A stretch of 64,000 bases of DNA, from the NCBI GenBank assembly GCA_010093995.1, contig ML992502.1, positions 124,001 through 188,000 on the forward strand. Reading direction: 5' to 3'. Source of the stretch: Elsinoe ampelina. Its lineage: Eukaryota. Shown piece after piece: positions 43,162 to 64,000 of this stretch (positions within the stretch are counted from its first letter, which is position 1; every line of letters starts with the position of its first letter). The position numbers and the translations under genes are program-made. Under the pieces are notes generated by a model. The model ran no database searches. It was not told where the DNA came from and was given only the letters and a program-made list of their open reading frames with translations.

Positions 43162-44381
43162 CTATGCCTCGGGCTTCCTATCAATCCAATCCGTATTCCC
43201 AAACTTGCCGGTGAAGGGATACTGGAACACCTTCTCCAACGAGCTATACGGCTCATACTGGTTGTCATCAAACACCTTTGTGACATTCGCCGCCAATCTT
43301 CCAGTGAGATTGAACCCCGGTCCAAAGTCCTTGTACTCGGCCATCGTGGTATCTATCACTGTCAGTCCCTCATTCCATCACTCATATATATCACCAAGTA
43401 CTCACTAATCCCATACCTCGGATCCGTCGCGCTCCAAATAATATACCCACTATCCCTGACACTATCATCCAACTCGCACCTCGCGAAAATACTCCTATGC
43501 AACGCATTCCACGGCCTCCCCAACGCACACTGCTTGGCGACACTCAACGTCGCATTCTCCTTGCGCACACTGCTATCATGGATATACACCCCGTACTTGT
43601 TCTCAAACGTGGTATTCGAGCCCTTCCACGCCGTGATTCCGCCCCCGCAGCCGCGGAGCACCACGTCGCTGCTCTGCACCCACAGCGTGCCGAAACCGTA
43701 GAAAAAATCCGTCTGCCCCGCGATGACCGAGTGGTACATGTAGCTGTTGCCGAGCTTGCCGACGTAGACCGTGTCTTGGTACGAGTAGAAGCCGCAGTAG
43801 TAGAAGCCCGCGTTGGCGTAGCTGACGGAGAGGGCGAGGGCGGGCCCGGCGCTGTAGGGCCGGTACACGTTGCGGAAGTCGATGTTGTAGGCGCGGAAGT
43901 TTGTGTTGCCGAAGGGGGTGTCGGCGGGGACGGGGTTGCCTTGCGGGCCGGCGCCGGTGGCGCTGGAGTTGAGGGTGGGCGCGATGGTGAGGGTGGAGGT
44001 GTAGAGGTTGTCGTAGGTGCCGGTTGTGGCGGTGCCGGTGGCGTTGGACCAGATGATGTTGACGGTGTTTAGGGTGGCGATGTTGGGGTGGCGGGTTTGG
44101 CCCAGTAGGGTGATGGGGCCGGGGCGGGTGACATTGAGTTGCTCGGTGTAGTTGCCGGGGGCGATGAGGATGGTGTAGGGGACGGTGTTGTTGGGGAGGG
44201 AGAGAATGGCGGATTGGACGGTGGTGAACTTGGAGGAGGGACCGACGAGGATGGTGCCTTTGGGGCAGCCGGAGAGTGGATCGCGAGTGGGGAGTTGACA
44301 GGCGCGGCGAGAGTAGGCGGCGGTGGGTTCGAGGAGGGTGAGGGTAGCCAATGCAGTGGCAAACAAGTGAGAGGACACCAT
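43162..44381 (-). CDS. Secreted pectinesterase (carbohydrate esterase family 8); intron ~43353-43405
   Basis: Signal-peptide-like N-terminus, PGNYTEQL, ALAL, YSYQDTVY, GQTDFFYGFG, LGRPW, AEYKDFGPG. Confidence 0.9.
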
Positions 44382-45124
44382 GGTTGTCAGTATGTCCCTC
44401 TCAGGATATGGTACAGTAAGTCGTGAATCAAGCTCTTCCAAGAGTGCGAATGAGGAGCTTATAGCAGTTTGACATGGACGGCCCTACAGTACCTGCTTGT
44501 ATCAAACTTACCGACCATCAGGTCACGGAAAATCTAGTCGACGACTGGAACTTCGGCACGCGTATAGCAGGGCCAGTAGTGCAATTTCGGCAGCGCTGGC
44601 CAGGGACAAAGGTCGGGGCATCATGGTGGTGACCGTGGTGGAGAAGCGGAGGAGAGGCGAATGTGTGGAAAAGGCGACAAAACATCCACCAATGAGCGCC
44701 AAGCATCTCGTGATCTGCCTTTTGGAGCATAATCTCGTTTAGACCGAGCGTCACCGAGTCACCGACAAGAAAATGACAGGGTCTCTTGATGACGCTGTAG
44801 CCCGGATCAAAGTCTAGATGGATGTAAAATCATCTGTACGAGTGGGGTATCTACAGTGTGCTGCCTGTTTGTCCCATACCATTTGCTTCCTGCGAAGCTG
44901 TCCTTGAACCTCACTTTTTTGCCCTAGCCAACACTGGTAGTTCATACCCTACAATTCACCCCTTCGACCCACAACAATTTTATATCCTACATGTCACAAA
45001 AGTCGCCCTGTGCTCTAAATGCCCTGACCCTGATTGCTAACGAATACAATGATACACTTTGAAACCCGAGGAACTTGAGGATATCGAATCATGACGTCGT
45101 GGCGAAAGCTCTGTCGTCCAGCGA

Positions 45125-47437: not shown

Positions 47438-48703
47438 CTACACGTACACATAACAAAACGGGCCCCCGATCGTCCGCACCAACTCCCCCAATTTCCTCCC
47501 CTGCCCCAACACCCCCAACTCCACCTCATCCTCAAGCGTCGCCTCCGCACTCGGCGGCCGATCGAACATCGTCCTCGTCCCCGCCACCACCTCCTCCCTC
47601 GACCCATCCTCCACCAGGTTCTGCCAAACCCACCACACCCGATCAATCATGGCGTGATGCAACCAAAACCACGGGTCGCCCGGGCTGGTGTAAAAATCGC
47701 CCCCCGGCGCCCCGCCGACGATGTAGTGGCCCGAGTTGTGCACCCCGTAGATACCTTCCGCGAAGATGCCCTGCATGACGCTTTGGAAGCGGGCGATGTC
47801 TTGCGCCTCCGTGATGAGGGAGACGACGTTGGCGTCGCTGGCTTGGTGCGCGGCCGAGGGGTTGAGGTCGCGGATGAGGCATTGTGGGTTGAAGCCGAGG
47901 CCGGAGGGGAGGGGGTTGGGGGTGAGGTAGGGGAGGTAGCCGGCCACGGGGCCGAGGTTGACGGTTGTGTTGGCGAAGGGGCCGGAGGTGATGCATGAGC
48001 CTCCGAGGCCGGGGGGGAAGGAGAGGGTGGTGTTGTGGGAGGTGGGGCCGAGGGTGATGCCTGGGTGGGGACGATAGGCGCCGTCGCCGCCGATGGAGGA
48101 GGGGGTGCCATCGAAGACAGGCGCGGCGATGGGGTTGGTGGAGAATTTGCTCCAATTGATGTAGGGTTGGTAGGAGGTGTAGTTGCATTCGTTACGAAGG
48201 GCTTGTTCGAAGGCCCAGGTGTAGTAGCGGTGCCAGGTCAGGAAGTTGCCGGTTTTGTGGATGGTCAAGGTCTGCTGGATGTGCTTGGATGGTGTCAGTG
48301 AAGCTTGGTCAGGTCTGGTAGGTGCCGCTTACAATTGCAACAAAGTCGTCGTATCTTGTCCGAGCACCTGGTGCAGACTCTCCTATCTTCGATGGCTTTT
48401 TCTGCAGACACAGTACTGCGTCTATCCATTGTCGTCTTTGTCGCTTTGACAGGTCATGCCTGCATTGTCAATGATTATAGCAATGGCGGAATGGCCGACG
48501 TACCATTCCCGTCGCTTGACGGCAGTCTTGTATGAGCATGTGGAGTTGCTGCCATAGGGACTGGATCCATGTCTACCAGCGACGTTCTCCAAAGCGATAT
48601 CAGCAAGTCTTTGACTTGCCGACACGTCGTCCGGTATCCATCTTGTGGTAGGTACTGCTTGGACCGAGCACGCCAAGAGTGCAAAGACGGCGACGAGATG
48701 CAT
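47438..48703 (-). CDS. Secreted tyrosinase-like di-copper oxidase (3 exons)
   Basis: Spliced product reads RREWHDLS..WIDAVLCLQKKP..RYDDFVAIHIQQTLTIHKTGNFLTWHRYY (CuA), then HNSGH and SPGDPWFWLHHAMIDRVW (CuB). Signal-peptide-like start. Confidence 0.88.
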
Positions 48704-49832: not shown

Positions 49833-51376
49833 TCACTTCCTCAACCTTGAACTCCTCCTCCCACTCCTCGGCGCCCTCCCCGGCAACGGCGGCCGCAGCA
49901 CATAATCCTCCACCTCCCTATCGGGATCCATCTCCAACAACTCCCTCTCCAACGGCCACAGCGGACTCTCCGGCAACACCCTCGTGGTCACATTACTCTG
50001 CTTCGTCCTCAGCTCCCAGAAAATATCCGGCCTGCCCCCTTCCTCGGCCGGCTCGATCATCAGCTTCCAATCCTTGAGCGCGCGAGGCTGGTAGGTCCCT
50101 TTGTCGTCGATACCTGGTCCGCCGAGCTTGAGTCGCGCCCTCACGCTGGGATGGATGTACTCGTGTGTCTCGTCGAGGGGTTGGTCCGTCTCGGTGCCGG
50201 AACGGGGTTCGCGCACGAAGAAGCGACCCGGCGTGCGGTCTTCTGCGCCGCCTAGGACGTAGATGCCCGTGAAGCTGTTCCAGATTTTACCCCAGCTCCA
50301 GGGGCGGGGGCGTTCATTGTTGCGTTCGTAGTAGGTCTCGGTCTTTTCTTGCTCGTCGAGGATGTAGTCCAGGTCCATGTCCAGAAGTTCGCGGACTTGG
50401 CTCATCATCCATGCGAGTGTTATGTTGGCTAGTTCTTGGTCGTCGTAGCCGCCGCCGATGTTGCTGTGTACGCCGGGGAACCATACCTGCCGCAGACGGG
50501 TCTTGTTGTCTCGGGCTTTCTCCCAGATTGCTGGAGCGAAGGCGGCGCGGCGTTCGTCGAGGGCGAGAGCCTGGAAGGCATTCTCGATGCAGTTGGCGAG
50601 TTTGGTGTCGTAGAAGGACATCTCTCGACTAGCAGTGCCTTGTAGACCGACTTTCTCAAGCCAGCCAATGCGAGGGGTGCCGAGAGCGCCGACGGTATCC
50701 CACACGCCAACGGCTTTGACAGACACTCCTAGAGTGGTGTAGCCTCGGCGGCGGAGTTCAGACTTGTAGCGTGGATCATTCGCAGAGGGCTTGTTTCGGA
50801 AGGGCTTGTTGGGTTGAGCAGGCTGATAGTCTGGATTTCGACGGTTCATCACGTCTTTGTAGATTTCTGGTAGGTACTGGTGACCCTCTTTTGAGAGCAC
50901 CCCGATTTCGTCGATCAGACCGGCGATAGCACGGGCAGTGAATGCGCCGCGCGAGAAGCCGAAGAGAAAGATCTCGTCGCCACGTTGGTAGTTATTGCAG
51001 ATGAAGCCGTATGCTTCGCGTACCATTTCGGCTAGGCCTTCACCAGTGATGCCGCCGTAGAGGCGGTCAACGAGTCCACCATGAGAGCCAACACCGTGAC
51101 TGTAATAGACAACTTGCTTGATGCCATACTCGCTTTGAGGCTTGATCGCTCTACCGATCCGTGTCACATTTGATGGGTTTTCTTTGCCCGACTTGCGCGG
51201 ACTCTCGTCCGAATTCAGCCATGTCCCTGTCATGCAGATTAGTCCGAGCTCAAAATTATACGATTCCGTCCATACGAACCATCTGCACAGATGATGATGC
51301 GCTTAAAGTCTTCAGGCTGGTCAATTTCACTAGGTGCTACGCGTGAGCCTTGACCGACACTCCGAGCGCGGATCAT
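49833..51376 (-). CDS. DUF2235 (Tle1-like alpha/beta hydrolase) protein; intron 51227-51279
   Basis: Splicing gives KRIIICADGTW. Also SNVTRI, YYSHGVG, FGFSRGAFTAR, GVWDTVGALG, ALALDERR, QVWFPGVHSNIGGG. Confidence 0.9.
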
Positions 51377-55688: not shown

Positions 55689-56473
55689 GGTGGTTCGTGG
55701 AGATGGATATGATTGATGATGAGCGATGGAATTTTTGTGATTGGATCAAGGAGGAGCGATGATACCACTATCTTTTTTGTGTAATGACATATTGCTTGAG
55801 ATGCATGTGGTGTTTTGGATCTACTGCTAGTGCACGGTGATGGATAAGCAGTGTTGCGTGTGACCTCTTGTGCGTACATGTACGAAGATGCCATCCTGAG
55901 AGTAGCTGTGTGCTACATGCTAGCGAGCAAAGGCTTCCAATCCGTCACTGGCTTCTCTTTGCGAGAGTCCGACGAACACAGGAGCGACTGCTTTGAAAGC
56001 ATTGCTGAAGCGCTGCTTGTCCAGCCCTGGCTGAACCACGATGGAGATGCGCTGGAGCCGCCGGGTGTGAGGTCGACTGTGATCATCTGGAGTGAAGAGG
56101 GGTTGTGGGGGTATAAAAGTGTGGCTGGATTTGGGCGTGTTCGTGGGAAGGGTTTGGTGTGTACAATACATACACAGGACACTGCAATGCTATGAGGGCA
56201 TATTTCGCTAAGCCAATGCTTGGAAAAGTCCCAATCGCCCGATCTATGCCTCAGGCAGTGGGGTGATATGCATGTATTGCAGACTTCACCTGCGCGACGA
56301 CAGAGGGGTCCCGTCCAGCGATGCTGATGGAAGATGCACAGGACGGCAAAGGACGAAGTTGAGTTACTACCACATGCACTGCACGCTGGCACCCTACACA
56401 TCCACCGACTCCAATCTCGAACGCACGCGGCGATCAACCACTCAAGTCTGTATGGAAAACGCTCCACCACCCA

Positions 56474-58162
56474 TCACACCTTCCCCCCCTGCCTCTGACT
56501 CAACGGCCCCTGCGGAAAATCCAACACATCCGGCACCTCGACCCTCCCCCCCTTCGCCTCCCTCATGGCCCTCACCTTCTCCCTCGGGGTAAACACCAAA
56601 TCACACCTATCATGCCTAGAGCGATACCCATTCGCCTCAAACGGAGCCATCTTGTCCGGCGTCGTCTCCGGCGCCAACGTGATGCGGAACTGCCTGAACG
56701 TCGCCACGAGAATCAACCGCATCTGGTACGTCGCCATGTTGCCCCCCGGACACCTGCGCGCGCCCACCCCGAACGGCACCAGCAGGCGTCGTTTCTCGGC
56801 CACGTTTTCGTCGTCCAGCCAGCGGCGTGGGTTGTAGCTGTCGAAATCCGGGAAGAGGTCCGGGCGCTGGCGGCTCATGGAGAGGGATTGGGTCGTGACG
56901 ACGGTGCCGGCGGGGAGGTAGTGGCCTAGGATCTCGAGGCCGCCGGCGGGGACGAGGCGGCTGCCGGTGAGGGCGACGGGGGGCCGGAAGCGGAGGCCTT
57001 CTTTGATGCAGGCGTCGAGGAACTTGAGGGAGTCGAGGTCGGTGTAGCCGTCGTGGGAGGAGATTTCGTCGTAGAGGTCTTGTTGGAGGGATTGGTTCTT
57101 GGCGAGCTCGTAGTAGATGAAGGCGAGGGCCGAGGAGGTGGTTTCGGTGGCCGCGAGAACTGGATGTAAGGGTCAGTAAGATTATCTTCGTGATACCGCC
57201 GACGTGAACATACCCTGGCCGGCCATCTCGGCGCCAATCTCCGAGTCGGACCACTCCTGCGTGGGATATTTGGCATCGGTATCGGTGAAGAGCTTGTAAA
57301 TGCTTGGATCTTCTTCAAAGGTGGAATTCCCTTGAGCCTTTGCCGCTTGTTTGCACAGATCATCGCCCAGTTGGAATAATTTGTCGCTAGAACGCACGCG
57401 GAAGCTAGCGTGGGAGAACGGACTCCATTGGAGCCAGGTGAAGAGCCATTCTGGCAGGCAAAGCCGCCAAACTACCAGAAAGTTGTATTCGCCAACGACG
57501 TGCGGGAACGTGGTGGCGTCCAGGTCGACTACTGAACCTCCCATGATGACTTGTGAGTTCTTCAGAGTACAGATACGAAGGTGCCAGACGATATCCTCGG
57601 ACTTTTCTCCTTCGGATCGGCCGAGGTTGTGGACCATCTCCTCGATGTGCTTGACAAAGACGTCGTGTCGGAGCTTGAGATTCTTGGTGGTAGTGGCGAT
57701 CATGACTGGATGGCGGCGTTGTCGGGCGATTGGGTGCTGTGGGTACGTCACTGTCCAGTCGTGGCCACCAACGCGGAGAGCGCGAATGGACGTTGGGGAC
57801 GTATCAAGATCCTTCCTGATGAAGACCTTTTCTACAGCCTCTGGATCGTTGAGGATGACGAGGTTGGGAGCGATCCTGACGATTGGCCCGTATTTTGCCA
57901 TGAGGGCATCTGCCTCGAAGGACAGTCTCCCGTGCCATCTCTGCCATCTGATCCAGAGGGAGGTCGCCGAGCTATGCCAGGGGCCAGGAATGGATCGAAG
58001 AGGGCCGAGATTGGCACGATAGATCATAGTACCAGCTCGGAATAGTACCGAGGAGGCCAGGACAGCCCAAAGCAGTTCCCAGCGGAAGCCATCTCGGACA
58101 TCGAGTTGTGTCTGCGGCGAGGGAACGCCGAAGAGGATCGAGCTTGAGTTGTCAAAATTCAT
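56474..58162 (-). CDS. Cytochrome P450; intron 57160-57213
   Basis: KYGPIVRIAPN, I-helix LAATETTS after splicing, K-helix KEGLR, YNPRRW and heme motif PFGVGARRCPG. Confidence 0.92.
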
Positions 58163-59350
58163 GGTCGAGCAATGTCTTCCAAACGTCAACAACGCAGTGC
58201 ATGCACAAGTGACGGGACAGAACACCATTTATGTCTGACGAGGGAAATCATGTCGTCGGGATCTGCGGTATTCAACCATCGGCGGTGTTGTCTAGGGCTG
58301 CATATGCCATCGCCTCCGGTAGTAAGAAATGTATCTTCAGCACGTATCCCTCGTCGTATGTCGATGAGGAACGCATCACACCTACCAGACATTTTGATAC
58401 GACGCATCCATTGCCTTGATAGCGAGACAGTAGCGTCGCCGACATGTGGTTGTATGCCAAAGAGTGACTCCTCGCATGCCATCAAAGTCTTCGTGGGTAG
58501 GTGGAATGGGGTGCTAGGTCAGATTTGTCGAATTGATTGCACTGGATTGGACGAGCGTGAAGTGCCCTAAACGGGACTTTCCTCTCATCGAAGACAGAGT
58601 CATGCCAAGGTGCTTGAAGGGACATCCACGTTGCGTGTGGCGTATGTGGTAGGATCAGGGCGTTATGATTCGCTCGTCCAGTCCGCAAGGTTACCTCCGG
58701 CCTCCTGTTCCATTGCAACATTTACTCTTGGATGAAGGGTCGTAGATAGACTGCTGCAAAAGGGCTGATAGTGCGTGCACAATACACGCAGGAGGGAATA
58801 GTCTGAAGTGATCTGTGACACGGGCCTGCTACAGTACAAGCGCAGCATCGACTCACTATCGTGCCGATGTGGTGTCACGATCGCGACTCGTATGACTGAC
58901 CGCCGGTTGTGCCGGTGAGTTCCACTCACTGATACGGAGGTGTGCGAGGTCGTTTCGGCGTCTTCCTGAGTTGGGTGGATGGGAAAAATTGCGCCAGGAA
59001 TGGAAAGCCCCCGAACTTGACACGCGAATTGTCACTACGTAAGCAGATTGGACATTCCAATTGGTCAGACTGCGGCTCTCTCGACGACTGCCCGATCGAG
59101 CTAGCGGCGGTCAGGGCCGCACTTCGCCTCGCTCGGGCACAGCCATTCCCTTGATTGGTCAGAATTGCTCCAAAACTTGAAGTTGACAAGCTGTGACGTT
59201 GTTGAGCTCGGCAACGTCTTTTCGGCTTCAAGTTCCGTTTGGCGTGTGACAGACGTTTTGCATGTGACAGACGCGCTTGACAACAGGTCGCGTCTCCTAT
59301 CCATCACCACACAATGTAGTTGATCCTTGTACATCTCTTCGCCAGTCACA

Positions 59351-60855
59351 ATGGCACGAAGAGACGCAGACCAAGACAATGCGCAGTCGCAGAGACCGCT
59401 TGTGCGACTCTACCACACCATACTGGCACGTAAATGCACTCAACACGCTCAAAGCATGGCTAATCGGTGATACAGGACAAGCTCCTTCTACCCGTCCGGC
59501 TTCTCACCTCCAAATTCGCTCTTCGCGCATACCTGACCTCGATCCTCTTCTTCATCACAGGCCTGCTGCTCTTTGCTTTCGCGGTGATCGCGTACGTCCT
59601 ATTCTACTGGTCGTACGTCCCACGCATCGGCTTCTCAAGAGATGTTCACCTTCAATATGATCCAATGCCTGTCGAGTGCCGCGCATATCTGGGAAGCGCG
59701 AATCCTTACTCGACCCCGTATCTGCCGCCATTGACAGGCGCTACACCTCCGCCACAGAGAAAGAGCGAGCTCACGGCGTCATTATCTACAAGATGCGCCG
59801 GGACACCTTCACCCTGGGGAACAGCGCCGGTTTCTCCAGAAGTCATCTCTCAGCAAGCTTATGATGTTGTCGTCGAGCTCACCATGCCACTCACTCCGCT
59901 CAACACTGAGGCTGGCAACTTCATGATTGACGCCCGCTTCCTCTCATCCCCAGCGCCCACCGAGTCTCTGCCCAAATACATCAACGACTACGACCCATTC
60001 TCTCCTCCGCCATCCACAGCCACCGACCTGGACGTTGAGCGTCCACTTGCTCACGCTCGCCGACCTGCGCTCATCCCCTATCACCCGCCTCTCATCTCCC
60101 TCTTCTCTTCATTCACTGCACTTCCACGATACGTCCTCGGCCTGCCGACCTCAACAACCACCCTCCGCGTGCCACTATTCACCCAAGTCTCCTTCCCACG
60201 CGGCCGCCGCGCCGTCCCTTCTTCCATTCACATCCAACTCCAAAACCCTTCCGGCGTCCAGCTCCAGGTCTACACCCTAAAAGTACATTTCCGCGCCCGC
60301 TTCTCCGGCCTGCGGTACCTGATGTACAACTTCCGCACCGCCTCCGGAATAGCTTTCATATTGTCATTCTTCTTCATGGAAGTTGTGACAGCTCTCGGCA
60401 TCTACGGATTCCTGTCATTCGTTGTCTTCGGAGGAGATCGCCCCGAAGGTCAGAAGACAATCAAGGATGACCCTTCAGCCGACGACAGCGAGACGGCCAT
60501 CAAAGACGAAGAGACCGAAACTGAGGGGATGAGTACCACTGAGCGGACATTCCCCTCATATGGAGGCGGGATGGCAATGAGATACTCCCAGCCTGCCGTC
60601 AAGCGGGAAGGGGAAGCAAGCAAGTCGGCAGTGATCGAGGGGCTGGGCGGGCTGACCAACATGACGCCCGGTCCAGGTGGAGAGGCCGACGATGAAGACG
60701 ATGAGGATGCGGATTTTGTACTGGATGATACGGAGAGGTGGAGGGACAGTGGGCTCGGGACGAGTATGGAGAGTGGGAGGGAGAGGACCGCAGGGGTCAG
60801 GAGGCGGAAGAGTGGTCCCGGGAGTAGACCTGGGAGTAGAGGTGGTGGAAGATGA
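59351..60855 (+). CDS. Seipin (BSCL2/Fld1-like lipid-droplet protein); first exon/donor uncertain, main exon from ~59476
   Basis: TM1, YWSYVPRIGFSRDVHLQY, QAYDVVVELTMP.TP.N.EAGNFM, F.ARFSGLRYLMYNF, TM2 and an acidic tail with DSGLGTS. Confidence 0.85.
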
Positions 60856-61589
60856 GGACAAATGGTGTGGTGTTGAGATTATGACCTGCATGAGGAACGA
60901 TTGCTACTTTGCTGCGTTGTTGGGGACGGGTCACCAAAGCTGCTTGATAGAGCGTTACTCTCAACACTGCTGTTTACGATGCTCCTCCCGGTTCCATTCA
61001 TCTTCTCGACCACGATATTTCGTGGTGTCAGGACATGTCCTTGTTCAGCCCAACAGACTGAAAGCAAGTGTCGGGCTGTACACCTCGCTCTGCAAACCTC
61101 GCCATCAGCGATGATCAATGGCAATCGTACTGCTGTTATTTACCTTGTATCAATGACAGCTCGTGGACCTGCACCGCCCTCACCCGCGGCCAGGATAGCA
61201 CCAACGACCACGAGATCGCACGTAATCAACAGGAGCACCCTGGTGAGCCCGATGTCGTCAAGGACCAAGATCAGCGGCCCATCCTTGCTACTCCTCACGA
61301 GCGACGGCCTCTGGCGCAAATGTACAATTCAAGAAGCCGTGCATCTAGTTGCAGGACACCAAGCGTCGAGGTCGTCGACGAGACTGCATGTCGGCCACCA
61401 TCCAGCCAGCACCCGGTCAGGTGGGTCGACTTGGAGGCTCTCAATCACATTCGATCATAGACACAGCGACAGCGACAGCGACGGCTAGAGCCCCACGCAA
61501 TGCAATTCCCATGACGCGACATCACTCGCACTCTGCTGGCCCAGATTCGACGACACAGGCATTACGGTACTCCAACGCAACACCTAGCA

Positions 61590-64000
61590 CTAGGACCCTT
61601 CGAACCCACCGGCTTTTGGTTTCCATTGCCCTGCCACCTCGCCTTTCTCGACCGTGATGTACCCTCCCTCCCCCGCCTTGCCCCTCAGAACCATCCCGGC
61701 CGACGAACCAAACACGACCTTCCCGACCAACGACCCCTGCTTCTCCCCCTCGACCTGCCCCTTCCTCACTTTGGCATTCTTCAAGTATGGCTGCTCCGGC
61801 GTACGCACTGGCCTGCTCGCCCTCTCCGCCCCGACCGATTTCTCCTGCACGGCCGGCCCGGGGTCAGCAGTGATTGCCACTGAAGCTTCATGTGGGAGGT
61901 AGAACGACACCCTCTTGAACACGGGCGTGCCGTCTTCGCGTTCGAGCATGCGGTAGGTGAACTTTTGATCTGGTAGGTCGGGGGCGGAGGTACTACCAGA
62001 TAGGGCGGCTTGCTGGGCTGGAGTGGTGGGGGAAGCCGAGAAGAGAGGAGAGGACCATTGCGGGGCGTGACGGCCGGAGGAGGTGCGTTTGAGGATTGGG
62101 CCCGAGAGGGTACGCTTGGTAGGGGGTGAGGCATCACTTGGGGTTGGAGAAGTGGAGGCGGTGGGGAGGGGATGATCCGGGATGGATGGAGCGTGTGTCA
62201 GGGGCACTTTCTTGAAGATGGATGTGCCGTCGGGGCGGTCGACCAGGCGGTAGGTGAATTGCTCTGCGACTGGTTGTTCAGCTGTCGGGCTTCGGTTGAA
62301 GACCGGGCCACCCCATTGTGGTGCGTGCCTACCGGATGAGACACGCTTTCTGTTCTTGGGCCTGGTAGGCGTCGCTTGGGGACTGTCTGCAGGAGTCGCA
62401 GTGTCAGATCCTCTGGGTTCGAGAGGCACCTTCCTGAACACAGATGTCCCGTCTGCACGATCGACAAGACGATAGGTGAATTTATGCTCTACTGGTTGCT
62501 CGGCTGCTTTTGTCTGAGCAAAGGCTGGAGTGCTCCACTGCGGTGCGTGCCTACCAGAAGACACTCGCTTAAAGACAGGCGTGCCGTCTGCTCGTTCGAC
62601 CAGTCGATAGGTAGATGTCTCGTTCTCTGGGCTGACAACTTCGGTGCCAGAAGCTTCGTTGCTTGCAGCCGGTTTAGTCTTCTCCTCGGGCACTTTCTTG
62701 AAGAACGACGTCCCATCAGGCCGCTCCACGAGCCTGTATGTGAACTGCTGTTCTTCCGCGGCAGGCTCTGGAGCAGGCATCACCGGTTTCGTCTCCTGCA
62801 CCGGCACCTTCTTGAACACAAACGTACCATCCTCCCGTTCAACAAGTCGATACGTGAATTGCTCTTCCTCCTCTGCTTTCCCCGCTCTCGACTCCGCTTG
62901 CGCAAAGGCGGGAAAACTCCATTGCGGCACTGCCCTCCCAGACGATACCCGCTTGAACACCGGCGATCCATTCCGTTGTACCAGCTTGTACGCTCCATCG
63001 TCGTCTGAAGCCTTCCGCTTAAGGACCGTGATCGGTGCGTTATTATTGACAAGTGATGTTGGTGTCGGTGTCGGGCTCAACATTGGCTTGGCGAAATCGG
63101 GACTGCCCCATTGAGGCGCATGCCTCCCAGAGGACACGCGCTTGATACTACCAGGTCGTCCACGAGGAGTCAGATTGAATGAGGTGTCGGGTACGTCGAT
63201 GCTCTCCTCTTCAGGAACAGAGGCCCCGACCACAGCTGGCGAAGTCACGCTCCTCGTAGCAAACACTGGGGCATTCCATTGTGGTGCATGCCGACCACTC
63301 GAGACCCGCTTCATGATCGACGGACGAGTGCGTCGTACAAGAACATCCTCCTGGCTTGCTTCGTCGCCATTTACGCTCCCAGACCCGTTCAGTCTTGCTA
63401 TGCTCTCATCGAATTTGTTCCCGGTCGGCCACGTTGGTGTCCCCCAGTTCGGAGCATGTCTCCCGCTTGCTGTCCTTCTGAAGACGGGAGCTCCGTTGCG
63501 CTCGACAAGTGCACATGTAGAGTTGCCATTGTCTAGGGATCGTTCTTCGGGTACCTCACCTATGATGACCGAGCCGGCGTCCTCCTCTTTCGGCTGCCCG
63601 TACAGTGACTGTGTCCAGGTAGGCGTGCCCCAATTTGGCGCATACCTCCCACAGCTTGTCCTCTTGAGGATTGGTACCCGTTCTCTGCTCACCAGTGTGT
63701 ATGAGGCGCTCCTCGATCCCGAGACCGACTCTTGCTCCGTAGTGCCATTGGTATCGCGAGCAAGGTCCTGGTTGGATATTCCGTGTCTAGCTGGGAGAGG
63801 ACCTTCTGCTACAACTGTGCCGATAAAGTCCCTGATGTTGGGGGTCGATTGGTCACCAGCTTCGCTCCCAATGGCGATGAGCTTGACCAGGAGTTCTCCA
63901 GGTTTCAATTGAGTCCCAAGAGGTAGCTGCGGAACATTCGCATCCAGAGAAGTACCACCATCTCCGCGACGACCAATGGCCTCGGTCGTCAGGAATGGCA
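61590..64000 (-). CDS. Repeat protein: apparent GroES-like (ADH_N/MDR) domain split by a long two-motif repeat array; 5' end at the window edge
   Basis: The frame is open to position 64000: (M?)PFLTTEAIGRRGDGGTSLDANVPQLPLGTQLKPGELLVKLIAIG...DFIGTVVAEGP-[repeats]-LVGKVVFG...GEGGYITVEKGEVA. It carries 8 KRVSSGRHAPQW-type and ~8 TYRLVERxDGTxVFKKV-type motifs. Confidence 0.8.
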   Translation of the reverse strand, partial: PFLTTEAIGRRGDGGTSLDANVPQLPLGTQLKPGELLVKLIAIGSEAGDQSTPNIRDFIGTVVAEGPLPARHGISNQDLARDTNGTTEQESVSGSRSASYTLVSRERVPILKRTSCGRYAPNWGTPTWTQSLYGQPKEEDAGSVIIGEVPEERSLDNGNSTCALVERNGAPVFRRTASGRHAPNWGTPTWPTGNKFDESIARLNGSGSVNGDEASQEDVLVRRTRPSIMKRVSSGRHAPQWNAPVFATRSVTSPAVVGASVPEEESIDVPDTSFNLTPRGRPGSIKRVSSGRHAPQWGSPDFAKPMLSPTPTPTSLVNNNAPITVLKRKASDDDGAYKLVQRNGSPVFKRVSSGRAVPQWSFPAFAQAESRAGKAEEEEQFTYRLVEREDGTFVFKKVPVQETKPVMPAPEPAAEEQQFTYRLVERPDGTSFFKKVPEEKTKPAASNEASGTEVVSPENETSTYRLVERADGTPVFKRVSSGRHAPQWSTPAFAQTKAAEQPVEHKFTYRLVDRADGTSVFRKVPLEPRGSDTATPADSPQATPTRPKNRKRVSSGRHAPQWGGPVFNRSPTAEQPVAEQFTYRLVDRPDGTSIFKKVPLTHAPSIPDHPLPTASTSPTPSDASPPTKRTLSGPILKRTSSGRHAPQWSSPLFSASPTTPAQQAALSGSTSAPDLPDQKFTYRMLEREDGTPVFKRVSFYLPHEASVAITADPGPAVQEKSVGAERASRPVRTPEQPYLKNAKVRKGQVEGEKQGSLVGKVVFGSSAGMVLRGKAGEGGYITVEKGEVAGQWKPKAGGFEGS

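Follow-up and report, generated by a model that had tools for sequence, protein, structure and literature searches.

What kind of protein opens and closes with the two halves of a single enzyme domain, carries hundreds of residues of repeats between them and lacks the rest of the enzyme? A gene at one edge of a 64,000-nucleotide stretch of Elsinoe ampelina DNA (contig ML992502.1, positions 124,001 to 188,000; hereafter the window, whose coordinates are used throughout) raises this question. The gene is a single-exon coding sequence on the minus strand at 61590..64000, with its stop codon at 61590..61592, and it encodes a protein of 803 amino acids, P0001. Our answer, to which we give a probability of roughly 0.7, is that the gene is an Elsinoe-specific derivative of a three-domain enzyme, in which a GroES-like and a Rossmann domain of medium-chain dehydrogenase/reductase (MDR) type are joined to an SfnG-type FMNH2-dependent monooxygenase, and that its repeat array is now the working part. 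Three steps lead to such a protein. An insert of 490–690 residues, made of 31-residue units, entered an 8–14-residue surface hairpin loop of the GroES-like domain in the Elsinoe lineage; the MDR module hosting it then came under relaxed constraint; and in E. ampelina the gene now ends 13 residues past the domain, with the cofactor-binding and monooxygenase domains gone from the locus. Selection now acts mainly on the units of the insert, an array of 13 basic and aromatic units set in acidic linkers.

In the list of open reading frames (ORFs), the minus-strand frame 61590..63998 runs for 802 codons without a break and then stops. The first bases of the strand, TG CCA TTC CTG, read (A)TG-P-F-L, which puts the A of the ATG at base 64001, outside the window. 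Since P0001 begins MPFLT in the protein collection, where it is 803 residues long, and the strand begins (A)TG-CCA, the start codon is 63999..64001, as an initial annotation made from the letters of the window had guessed. Both termini quoted in that annotation, VPQLPLGTQLKPGELLVKLIAIG...DFIGTVVAEGP at the N-terminus and LVGKVVFG...GGYITVEKGEVA at the C-terminus, are present in the ORF, and the insertion that it put at about 680 residues measures 689, from the end of DFIGTVVAE (residue 66) to SLVGKVVFGS (residue 757). The sequence is fungal, its named relatives all being Elsinoe species, and P0001 lacks both a signal peptide and any membrane segment (the highest 19-residue Kyte-Doolittle mean is 1.01).

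The connection between P0001 and an enzyme runs through a protein of E. fawcettii. A word-indexed protein search returned four relatives: P0002 from E. batatas (674 residues), P0003 from E. fawcettii (KAF4550902.1, a hypothetical protein of 1237 residues), P0004 (643 residues) and P0005 from E. australis (616 residues). P0003 is the full-length form, and we refer to P0001, P0002, P0004 and P0005 as the truncated proteins. Residues 38–609 of P0003 align to the window across the N-terminal half-domain, the repeats and the C-terminal half-domain (tblastn, E 2e-138 and 4e-59), so that the two proteins share orthologous halves, an array (nine units in P0003) and an insert at the same loop. Whereas P0001 stops 13 residues past the C-half, P0003 retains the Rossmann domain together with a complete SfnG-type monooxygenase. 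Its equivalent of the C-half continues unbroken into the Rossmann domain: past this point come ADH_zinc_N (E 1.5e-6, 28.6 bits against a Pfam cutoff of 31.8) and Bac_luciferase (E 1e-59), and the stretch that follows the C-half aligns with solved alcohol dehydrogenases in the correct register (E 9e-8). The last domain is an SfnG equivalog (TIGR04021, 559 bits; cutoff 383).

P0003 in turn connects to a family of uninterrupted fusion enzymes. Two members, P0006 (found with the Rossmann part of P0003) and P0007 (found by profile search; Cryoendolithus antarcticus OQO14333.1, 874 residues), carry an unbroken ADH_N domain (E 2e-11), ADH_zinc_N and Bac_luciferase; P0007 matches TIGR04021 at 566 bits against the cutoff of 383, and P0001 has no TIGR04021 match. 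The family yields 175 matches at E<=1e-10; the 120 listed include Dothideomycetes and lichen-forming fungi, and only one of these 120 is named Elsinoe. Source databases name the fusion proteins variously as 'dimethylsulfone monooxygenase', 'alkanesulfonate monooxygenase' and 'NADPH:quinone reductase-like'. P0003 is 56% identical to P0007 at 91% coverage, and its SfnG part falls among Dothideomycete sequences in a tree, on a branch that is not unusually long. By BLASTP, residues 579–987 of P0003 match 201–661 of P0006 (45% identity, E 6e-109) and residues 7–73 match 119–197 (E 2e-4), colinear with the larger match. The two matches therefore place about 500 residues of P0003 between positions 197 and 201 of P0006, inside 'VVKAPRKPSR / IQQGDVVFG'. 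Judged by the orthology of its retained part, P0001 descends from this fungal MDR-SfnG fusion family. The initial annotation missed this origin, and it also missed that conservation is highest in the repeats.

The point of entry is a short hairpin loop in every family member outside Elsinoe for which it could be assessed. Among 132 stored proteins, 33 without the N motif were left out as not assessable; the split-site loop is 8–14 residues long in 94 of the 94 non-Elsinoe family proteins that carry the motif (11–13 residues by pattern in 83, about 8 to 14 as read by eye in 11) and about 490–695 residues long in the five Elsinoe proteins. The insert had been placed between two strands, '..VVxxG' and 'GDxVFG', and the family alignment puts it exactly there. 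In P0001 it covers residues 67–756 (61734..63803, minus strand; 689 residues); in P0002, P0003, P0004 and P0005 it is 560, 505, 515 and 488 residues long, the variation that had been expected of orthologues. The solved structures nearest the parental MDR module are the quinone oxidoreductase 1yb5, 4ida and LovC (3b6z), at E 8e-13 to 2e-11; no solved chain was matched by the sequence of P0001 itself. In 1yb5, a zeta-crystallin/NADPH:quinone oxidoreductase, the equivalent of the split site is the hairpin 'AGVIEAVGDNASAFKKGDRVF' ('VGDNASAF'), and 1yb5, 4ida and LovC differ from P0001 in being complete two-domain NADPH enzymes without an insert. An excursion from an MDR GroES-like domain has a precedent in the structural-zinc lobe of zinc alcohol dehydrogenases, which is about 20 residues long, folded and metal-bound. 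The Elsinoe form, by contrast, is 490–690 residues of repeats and low-complexity linkers, with the rest of the enzyme gone.

Are the two ends of P0001 really halves of one domain, as the initial annotation had proposed? The N-half comprises 36 residues (31–66, KPGELLVKLIAIG...RDFIGTVVAE; 63804..63911, minus strand) within a profile alignment of residues 28–72 (63786..63920), and the C-half comprises 34 (757–790, SLVGKVVFGSS...GGYITVEKGEVA; 61632..61733, minus strand). Using the four truncated proteins alone, with P0003 left out, we compared each half by hhalign with a family hidden Markov model (HMM) of 96 uninterrupted domains. The N-half matched family columns 45–101 (P 7.4e-4) and the C-half columns 105–135 (P 0.013), so that one match ends and the other begins precisely at the loop; of 300 column-shuffled controls for each half, none reached the N-half score and 3 reached the C-half score. 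Once the insert had been removed in silico, the joined halves gave one alignment across the junction (79 columns, 37% identity, P 5.2e-6, probability 86%), a score that 0 of 150 shuffles reached. The ends of P0001 likewise align to P0007 at about 99–155 and 159–189, which together cover nearly all of the Pfam ADH_N footprint of P0007 (104–192). P0007 and the other fusion proteins of Dothideomycetes and lichen fungi, which we take as the parent, differ from P0001 in that the domain is uninterrupted, the loop is short, all three domains are present and there are no repeat units. The profile comparison and the continuity seen in P0003 show that the ends of P0001 are homologous to the GroES-like domain of bona fide MDR proteins.

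That the ends resemble an MDR N-domain by chance, and that P0001 is an unrelated repeat protein, is hardly tenable. Each end is short (about 35 residues) and fails single-sequence and Pfam tests, which is what the idea has in its favour; yet the ends match abutting, colinear parts of one domain, and in the orthologue P0003 the same ends are continuous with the rest of the enzyme, as its E 6e-109 match attests. We rejected chance likeness on that continuity and the shuffle controls.

The insert is built from a 31-residue basic and aromatic unit, present in 13 copies, that reads TYRLVERxDGTPVFKRVSSGRHAPQW..P.F (consensus TYRLVERDGTPVFKRVSSGRHAPQWGTPAFS). An iterated unit HMM places the array at 61905..63704 on the minus strand, with units 1–5 at 63612-63704, 63429-63518, 63258-63341, 63090-63182 and 62901-62993, units 6–9 at 62802-62855, 62688-62741, 62517-62612 and 62424-62477, and units 10–13 at 62295-62348, 62187-62255, 62037-62108 and 61905-61958. 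Six are full, five consist of the A part only (TYRLVERxDGTxVFKKV) and two are partial or B-only. From P0001 to P0005, in that order, the same HMM counts 13, 10, 9, 8 and 7 units, and it detects none in 274 other stored proteins, mostly fusion-family members or fragments. The units carry Y, F and W and a net charge of +39; the linkers between them are acidic (net -22), rich in P, S, T, E and A, and 83% polar or disorder-promoting. The unit profile gave a single match against solved structures, at the noise level (E 1.6), and the ESM Atlas feature search gave no usable match for the insert or the N-half.

The units are old, and each is held by selection. DNA copies of the unit are 60–74% alike; paralogous units show a proportion of synonymous differences (pS) of 0.72 and 0.81, which is saturated, against a non-synonymous proportion (pN) of 0.14 and 0.28, and it is this combination that points to age and constraint. 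Between paralogous copies of the A part, the non-synonymous to synonymous rate ratio (dN/dS) is about 0.07. Copy number changes in register: P0001 has a block of 126 residues (391–516; 62454..62831, minus strand; alignment A3) that is absent from its closest relative, P0002, and whose two junctions both fall within units and keep their register (FTYRLVERE^DGTSVF, the block ending FTYRLVDRA).

As to where the unit came from, we considered duplication of the local MDR hairpin and rejected it: 47 units compared with the family domain by hhalign gave P 0.48. A separate observation concerns residues ~590–612 of P0004 and P0005, where the position of the last unit (..EDGTPVFKRV.., window 61905-61958) aligns with '..GEGTRKFGVGDVVCGS', the canonical MDR 'F.vGD.V.G' strand. 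The alignment hints that the A part could derive from this strand, although the same profile test is unsupportive.

How widely the repeats occur was searched in a set of 1.84 billion representative proteins. Among the 150 matches listed, only P0002 and P0005 matched the repeat part; 110 further matches lay below these. The profile used columns specific to P0003, and for 147 of the 150 the best stretch fell at profile positions 607–789, in the monooxygenase part. A scan of metagenome contigs with alignment A3 gave 287 pattern matches, of which 0 were confirmed. Relatives of the repeats thus appear confined to Elsinoe as far as searched, their absence outside the genus being less firmly shown than intended.

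Selection is strongest on the units, then on the barrel halves, and least on the linkers. Compared with P0002, P0003, P0004 and P0005 in turn, P0001 is 91, 71, 58 and 53% identical in the units, 83, 51, 42 and 40% in the N-half, 75, 32, 39 and 42% in the C-half, and 68, 40, 36 and 23% in the linkers. Invariant positions number 106 of 320 in the units, 12 of 36 in the N-half, 13 of 34 in the C-half (the counts for the halves being for the four truncated proteins) and 52 of 370 in the linkers. In the halves these residues are the Gly, Val and Leu of strand positions.

In P0003 the host module has diverged and the monooxygenase has not. Its SfnG domain is 76% identical to that of P0007, within the 74–86% of other lineages; its GroES-like halves are only 24% and 45% identical, against 70–87% elsewhere (one N-half at 37%), and its Rossmann part 32%, against 49–64%. 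In the nucleotide-motif region P0003 reads WGAD-LAAQ against WGASTTTGQ in the family. The MDR module therefore lost constraint once it hosted the insert, before truncation. In P0001 a 13-residue tail (GQWKPKAGGFEGS; 61593..61631, minus strand) stands in place of the parental linker, Rossmann and SfnG parts. W793 and A797 of this tail are invariant among the truncated proteins, which stop 6, 10 or 14 residues past the common W793. P0003 is 52% identical to P0001, 49% to P0002 and 42% to P0004 and P0005 (an unrooted comparison), and so lies nearer P0001 than the E. australis type; truncation within Elsinoe has possibly happened twice, independently. The available part of PMC9677705 lists Elsinoe genomes and gives no species tree.

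Neither missing domain turned up nearby. The initial annotation had noted that the protein stops before any Rossmann domain; Pfam finds none in P0001, and tblastn with P0003 (E<=10) finds nothing beyond its residue 609 within the window, save scattered matches of E 1.1–6.7 on unrelated places. P0001 matches neither ADH_zinc_N nor the SfnG models (TIGR04021/PF00296).

Transcript data bear on whether further exons exist. Logan contigs of four runs, drawn from two studies, were aligned to 56000-64000, and the RNA nature of the runs was deduced from spliced contigs. A 50-base intron of the neighbouring seipin gene (59426-59475, plus strand), which with an allowed shift has GC..AG ends and a CTAAT branch site, is absent from the contigs of all four runs, and a 54-nucleotide GT..AG intron of a cytochrome P450 gene (57160-57213, minus strand; CT..AC on the plus strand) is spliced in one run only (X3). 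The runs therefore contain complementary DNA. The same four runs cover 61281-63867 with 0 differing letters and no splice joint; single contigs of 1256–1345 nucleotides span much of the insert. The stop codon is bridged without a joint by X2 record 5 (61281-62101), X3 record 13 (61281-61618) and X7 record 26 (61485-62450), reading up to about 310 nucleotides past it. The contigs being colinear and free of joints, the insert is part of the exon and nothing further is spliced on beyond the C-half: the gene is expressed as a single exon without splicing, with a transcribed 3' untranslated region colinear with the genome at 61281..61589. A spliced-out insert, which the initial annotation had named as one outcome that would overturn its reading, was not seen. 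We did not use as evidence the contig end at 61281, which is common to two runs of one study, or gaps in single-run coverage.

The convergent seipin gene (Pfam E 1e-51) has its end about 735 bp past the stop codon of the repeat gene. Its longest transcript contig ends at 61078 and those of the repeat gene reach 61281, so that some 200 bp appear to separate the ends of the two transcripts, although the end of a contig is weak evidence.

The expression and conservation data make it very unlikely that the gene is a decaying pseudogene, a functionless stub left by deletion or rearrangement. Such a stub would account for the loss of two of the three parental domains from the locus and for an enzyme-derived remainder that matches no curated family. 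Against this, the frame is open for 803 codons, the same truncated architecture recurs in three further proteins that are only 38–78% identical, the gene is present in the RNA contigs of two studies, and the units are 53–91% conserved, with saturated synonymous and low non-synonymous change between paralogous copies.

Several results weigh against the derivation that we propose. Neither the whole of P0001 nor its end pieces match Pfam ADH_N: nothing relevant appears at E<=10 for the whole protein, a 70-residue N-terminal piece or a 90-residue C-terminal piece, and there is no NCBIfam match. The plain HMMER test with ADH_N that had been suggested therefore failed for the separate pieces, and the family HMM, significant for P0003 only (1.7e-23), is insignificant on the whole of P0001, P0002, P0004 and P0005 and scores the joined halves at E 4–89 (E 23 at Z=10000); it was by profile-profile comparison that the joined halves matched. 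When P0001 is compared with P0006 by BLASTP, the top two matches are colinear but not significant (E 0.19 and 5). With the direct family tests failing, MDR membership of P0001 rests on transitive and profile-profile homology. The contigs show presence, not absence, and could miss a rare spliced isoform. The function of the units is read from composition and a short consensus, and no partner, motif family or solved relative was found. For the whole protein the ESM Atlas gives a poor model (pTM 0.19, mean pLDDT 0.38), and compared with P0004 the advantage of the halves in conservation over the linkers is modest (42% and 39% against 36%).

The absence of Rossmann and SfnG parts, too, holds for the 64-kb window searched, not for the rest of the genome, and a separate gene elsewhere could supply them. 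That P0001 is still part of a working MDR-SfnG enzyme, completed by such a fission product or by an unseen exon, is quite unlikely. E. fawcettii does keep all parts, in one 1237-residue model whose SfnG domain is as well conserved, relative to P0007, as in other lineages. Yet the window holds nothing like P0003 beyond residue 609, three runs read about 310 nucleotides past the stop without a joint, and the convergent seipin gene comes next; moreover, the break lies inside the MDR module, between GroES-like and Rossmann domains, which would be no natural boundary between two chains.

If P0001 is a derivative of the fusion enzyme, what might it do? Lacking a Rossmann domain, it cannot be an MDR oxidoreductase, and it is presumably no oxidoreductase any longer. 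The array may instead be a multivalent docking scaffold, probably phosphorylation-controlled and switched by basophilic kinases. P0001 has nine [KR][KR]x[ST] sites, against a mean of 2.3 and a maximum of 8 in shuffles, and we read this pattern, KR-x-S-S in the units, as a candidate basophilic-kinase site. We put at about even odds the idea that the conserved barrel halves still pair, which would bring both ends of the array together and make it a loop. A true clasp would go further: halves of 35 residues, 690 residues apart in the chain, would reassemble and close a phosphorylation-controlled array as a loop, and would have survived the loss of the enzyme domains, which may have happened twice. 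We think this rather unlikely. If true, it would make the closed-loop linear-motif array a new protein architecture, in which an enzyme domain has found a new and purely structural use as a tie.

It is possible, at odds clearly below even, that the origin is the same and the halves do not fold at all. P0001 would then be a fully disordered repeat protein, with ends that are a relic not yet drifted away and no clasp. The poor ESM Atlas model of the whole protein speaks for this, as does the divergence of the P0003 halves from P0007. An MDR catalytic domain normally packs against its own Rossmann domain, and here that partner is missing. On the other side, invariant positions make up 33–38% of the halves and 14% of the linkers, across two lineages about 45% identical overall; the residues kept are those of strands; and both halves are retained in all three named truncated species. 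For residues 22–75 of the ESM Atlas model the closest clusters are those of Cpn10/GroES, with a TM of 0.50 over 42 residues; this likeness falls below the bar for naming a fold and is of value as a lead only.

Whether or not the halves pair, the derivation from an enzyme would be new in its details: an MDR/GroES-like domain that took in a giant array of repeats and later lost the rest of the enzyme, in one genus as far as searched. The initial annotation knew of no described family with this architecture; none turned up in our searches, and literature searches found no paper describing a split MDR domain with a repeat insert. The case would be an unusually clean and datable one of a new protein arising from an enzyme, with E. 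fawcettii as a living intermediate that has the whole enzyme. Elsinoe is a genus of crop scab pathogens, and the expressed gene is a candidate for a lineage-specific regulator or scaffold.

The parent family merits attention of its own. A fusion of a quinone-reductase-like MDR enzyme with SfnG occurs widely among Dothideomycetes and lichen fungi, has a bearing on how fungi use organosulfur compounds and is apparently undescribed: literature searches found no paper describing a fungal MDR-SfnG fusion, and in the available part of PMC5857272 SfnG occurs in the reference list only. The available part of PMC11588060 describes SfnG as one component of a two-component monooxygenase system, dependent on a separate NAD(P)H flavin reductase. 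By analogy, the MDR part of the fusion might replace the separate flavin reductase of bacterial SfnG.

Neighbouring ORFs encode seipin, a P450, Ndc80 and Pex14; the P450 exons at 56477-56878 and 57185-58228 match PF00067, and 60800-64000 has no Rfam match. A 466-residue ORF at 49836-51233 (minus strand) strongly matches the Tle1-like phospholipase catalytic domain (PF09994, E 3e-85), and near it lie a tyrosinase (47441-48268) and a pectinesterase (43365-44441). Positions 1-24500 are AT-rich (34–39% GC, against 51–59% in the gene-rich 26-64 kb) and contain no ORF of at least 230 residues; this part looks like an AT isochore of the repeat-induced point mutation (RIP) type or a repeat-rich region beside the gene cluster.

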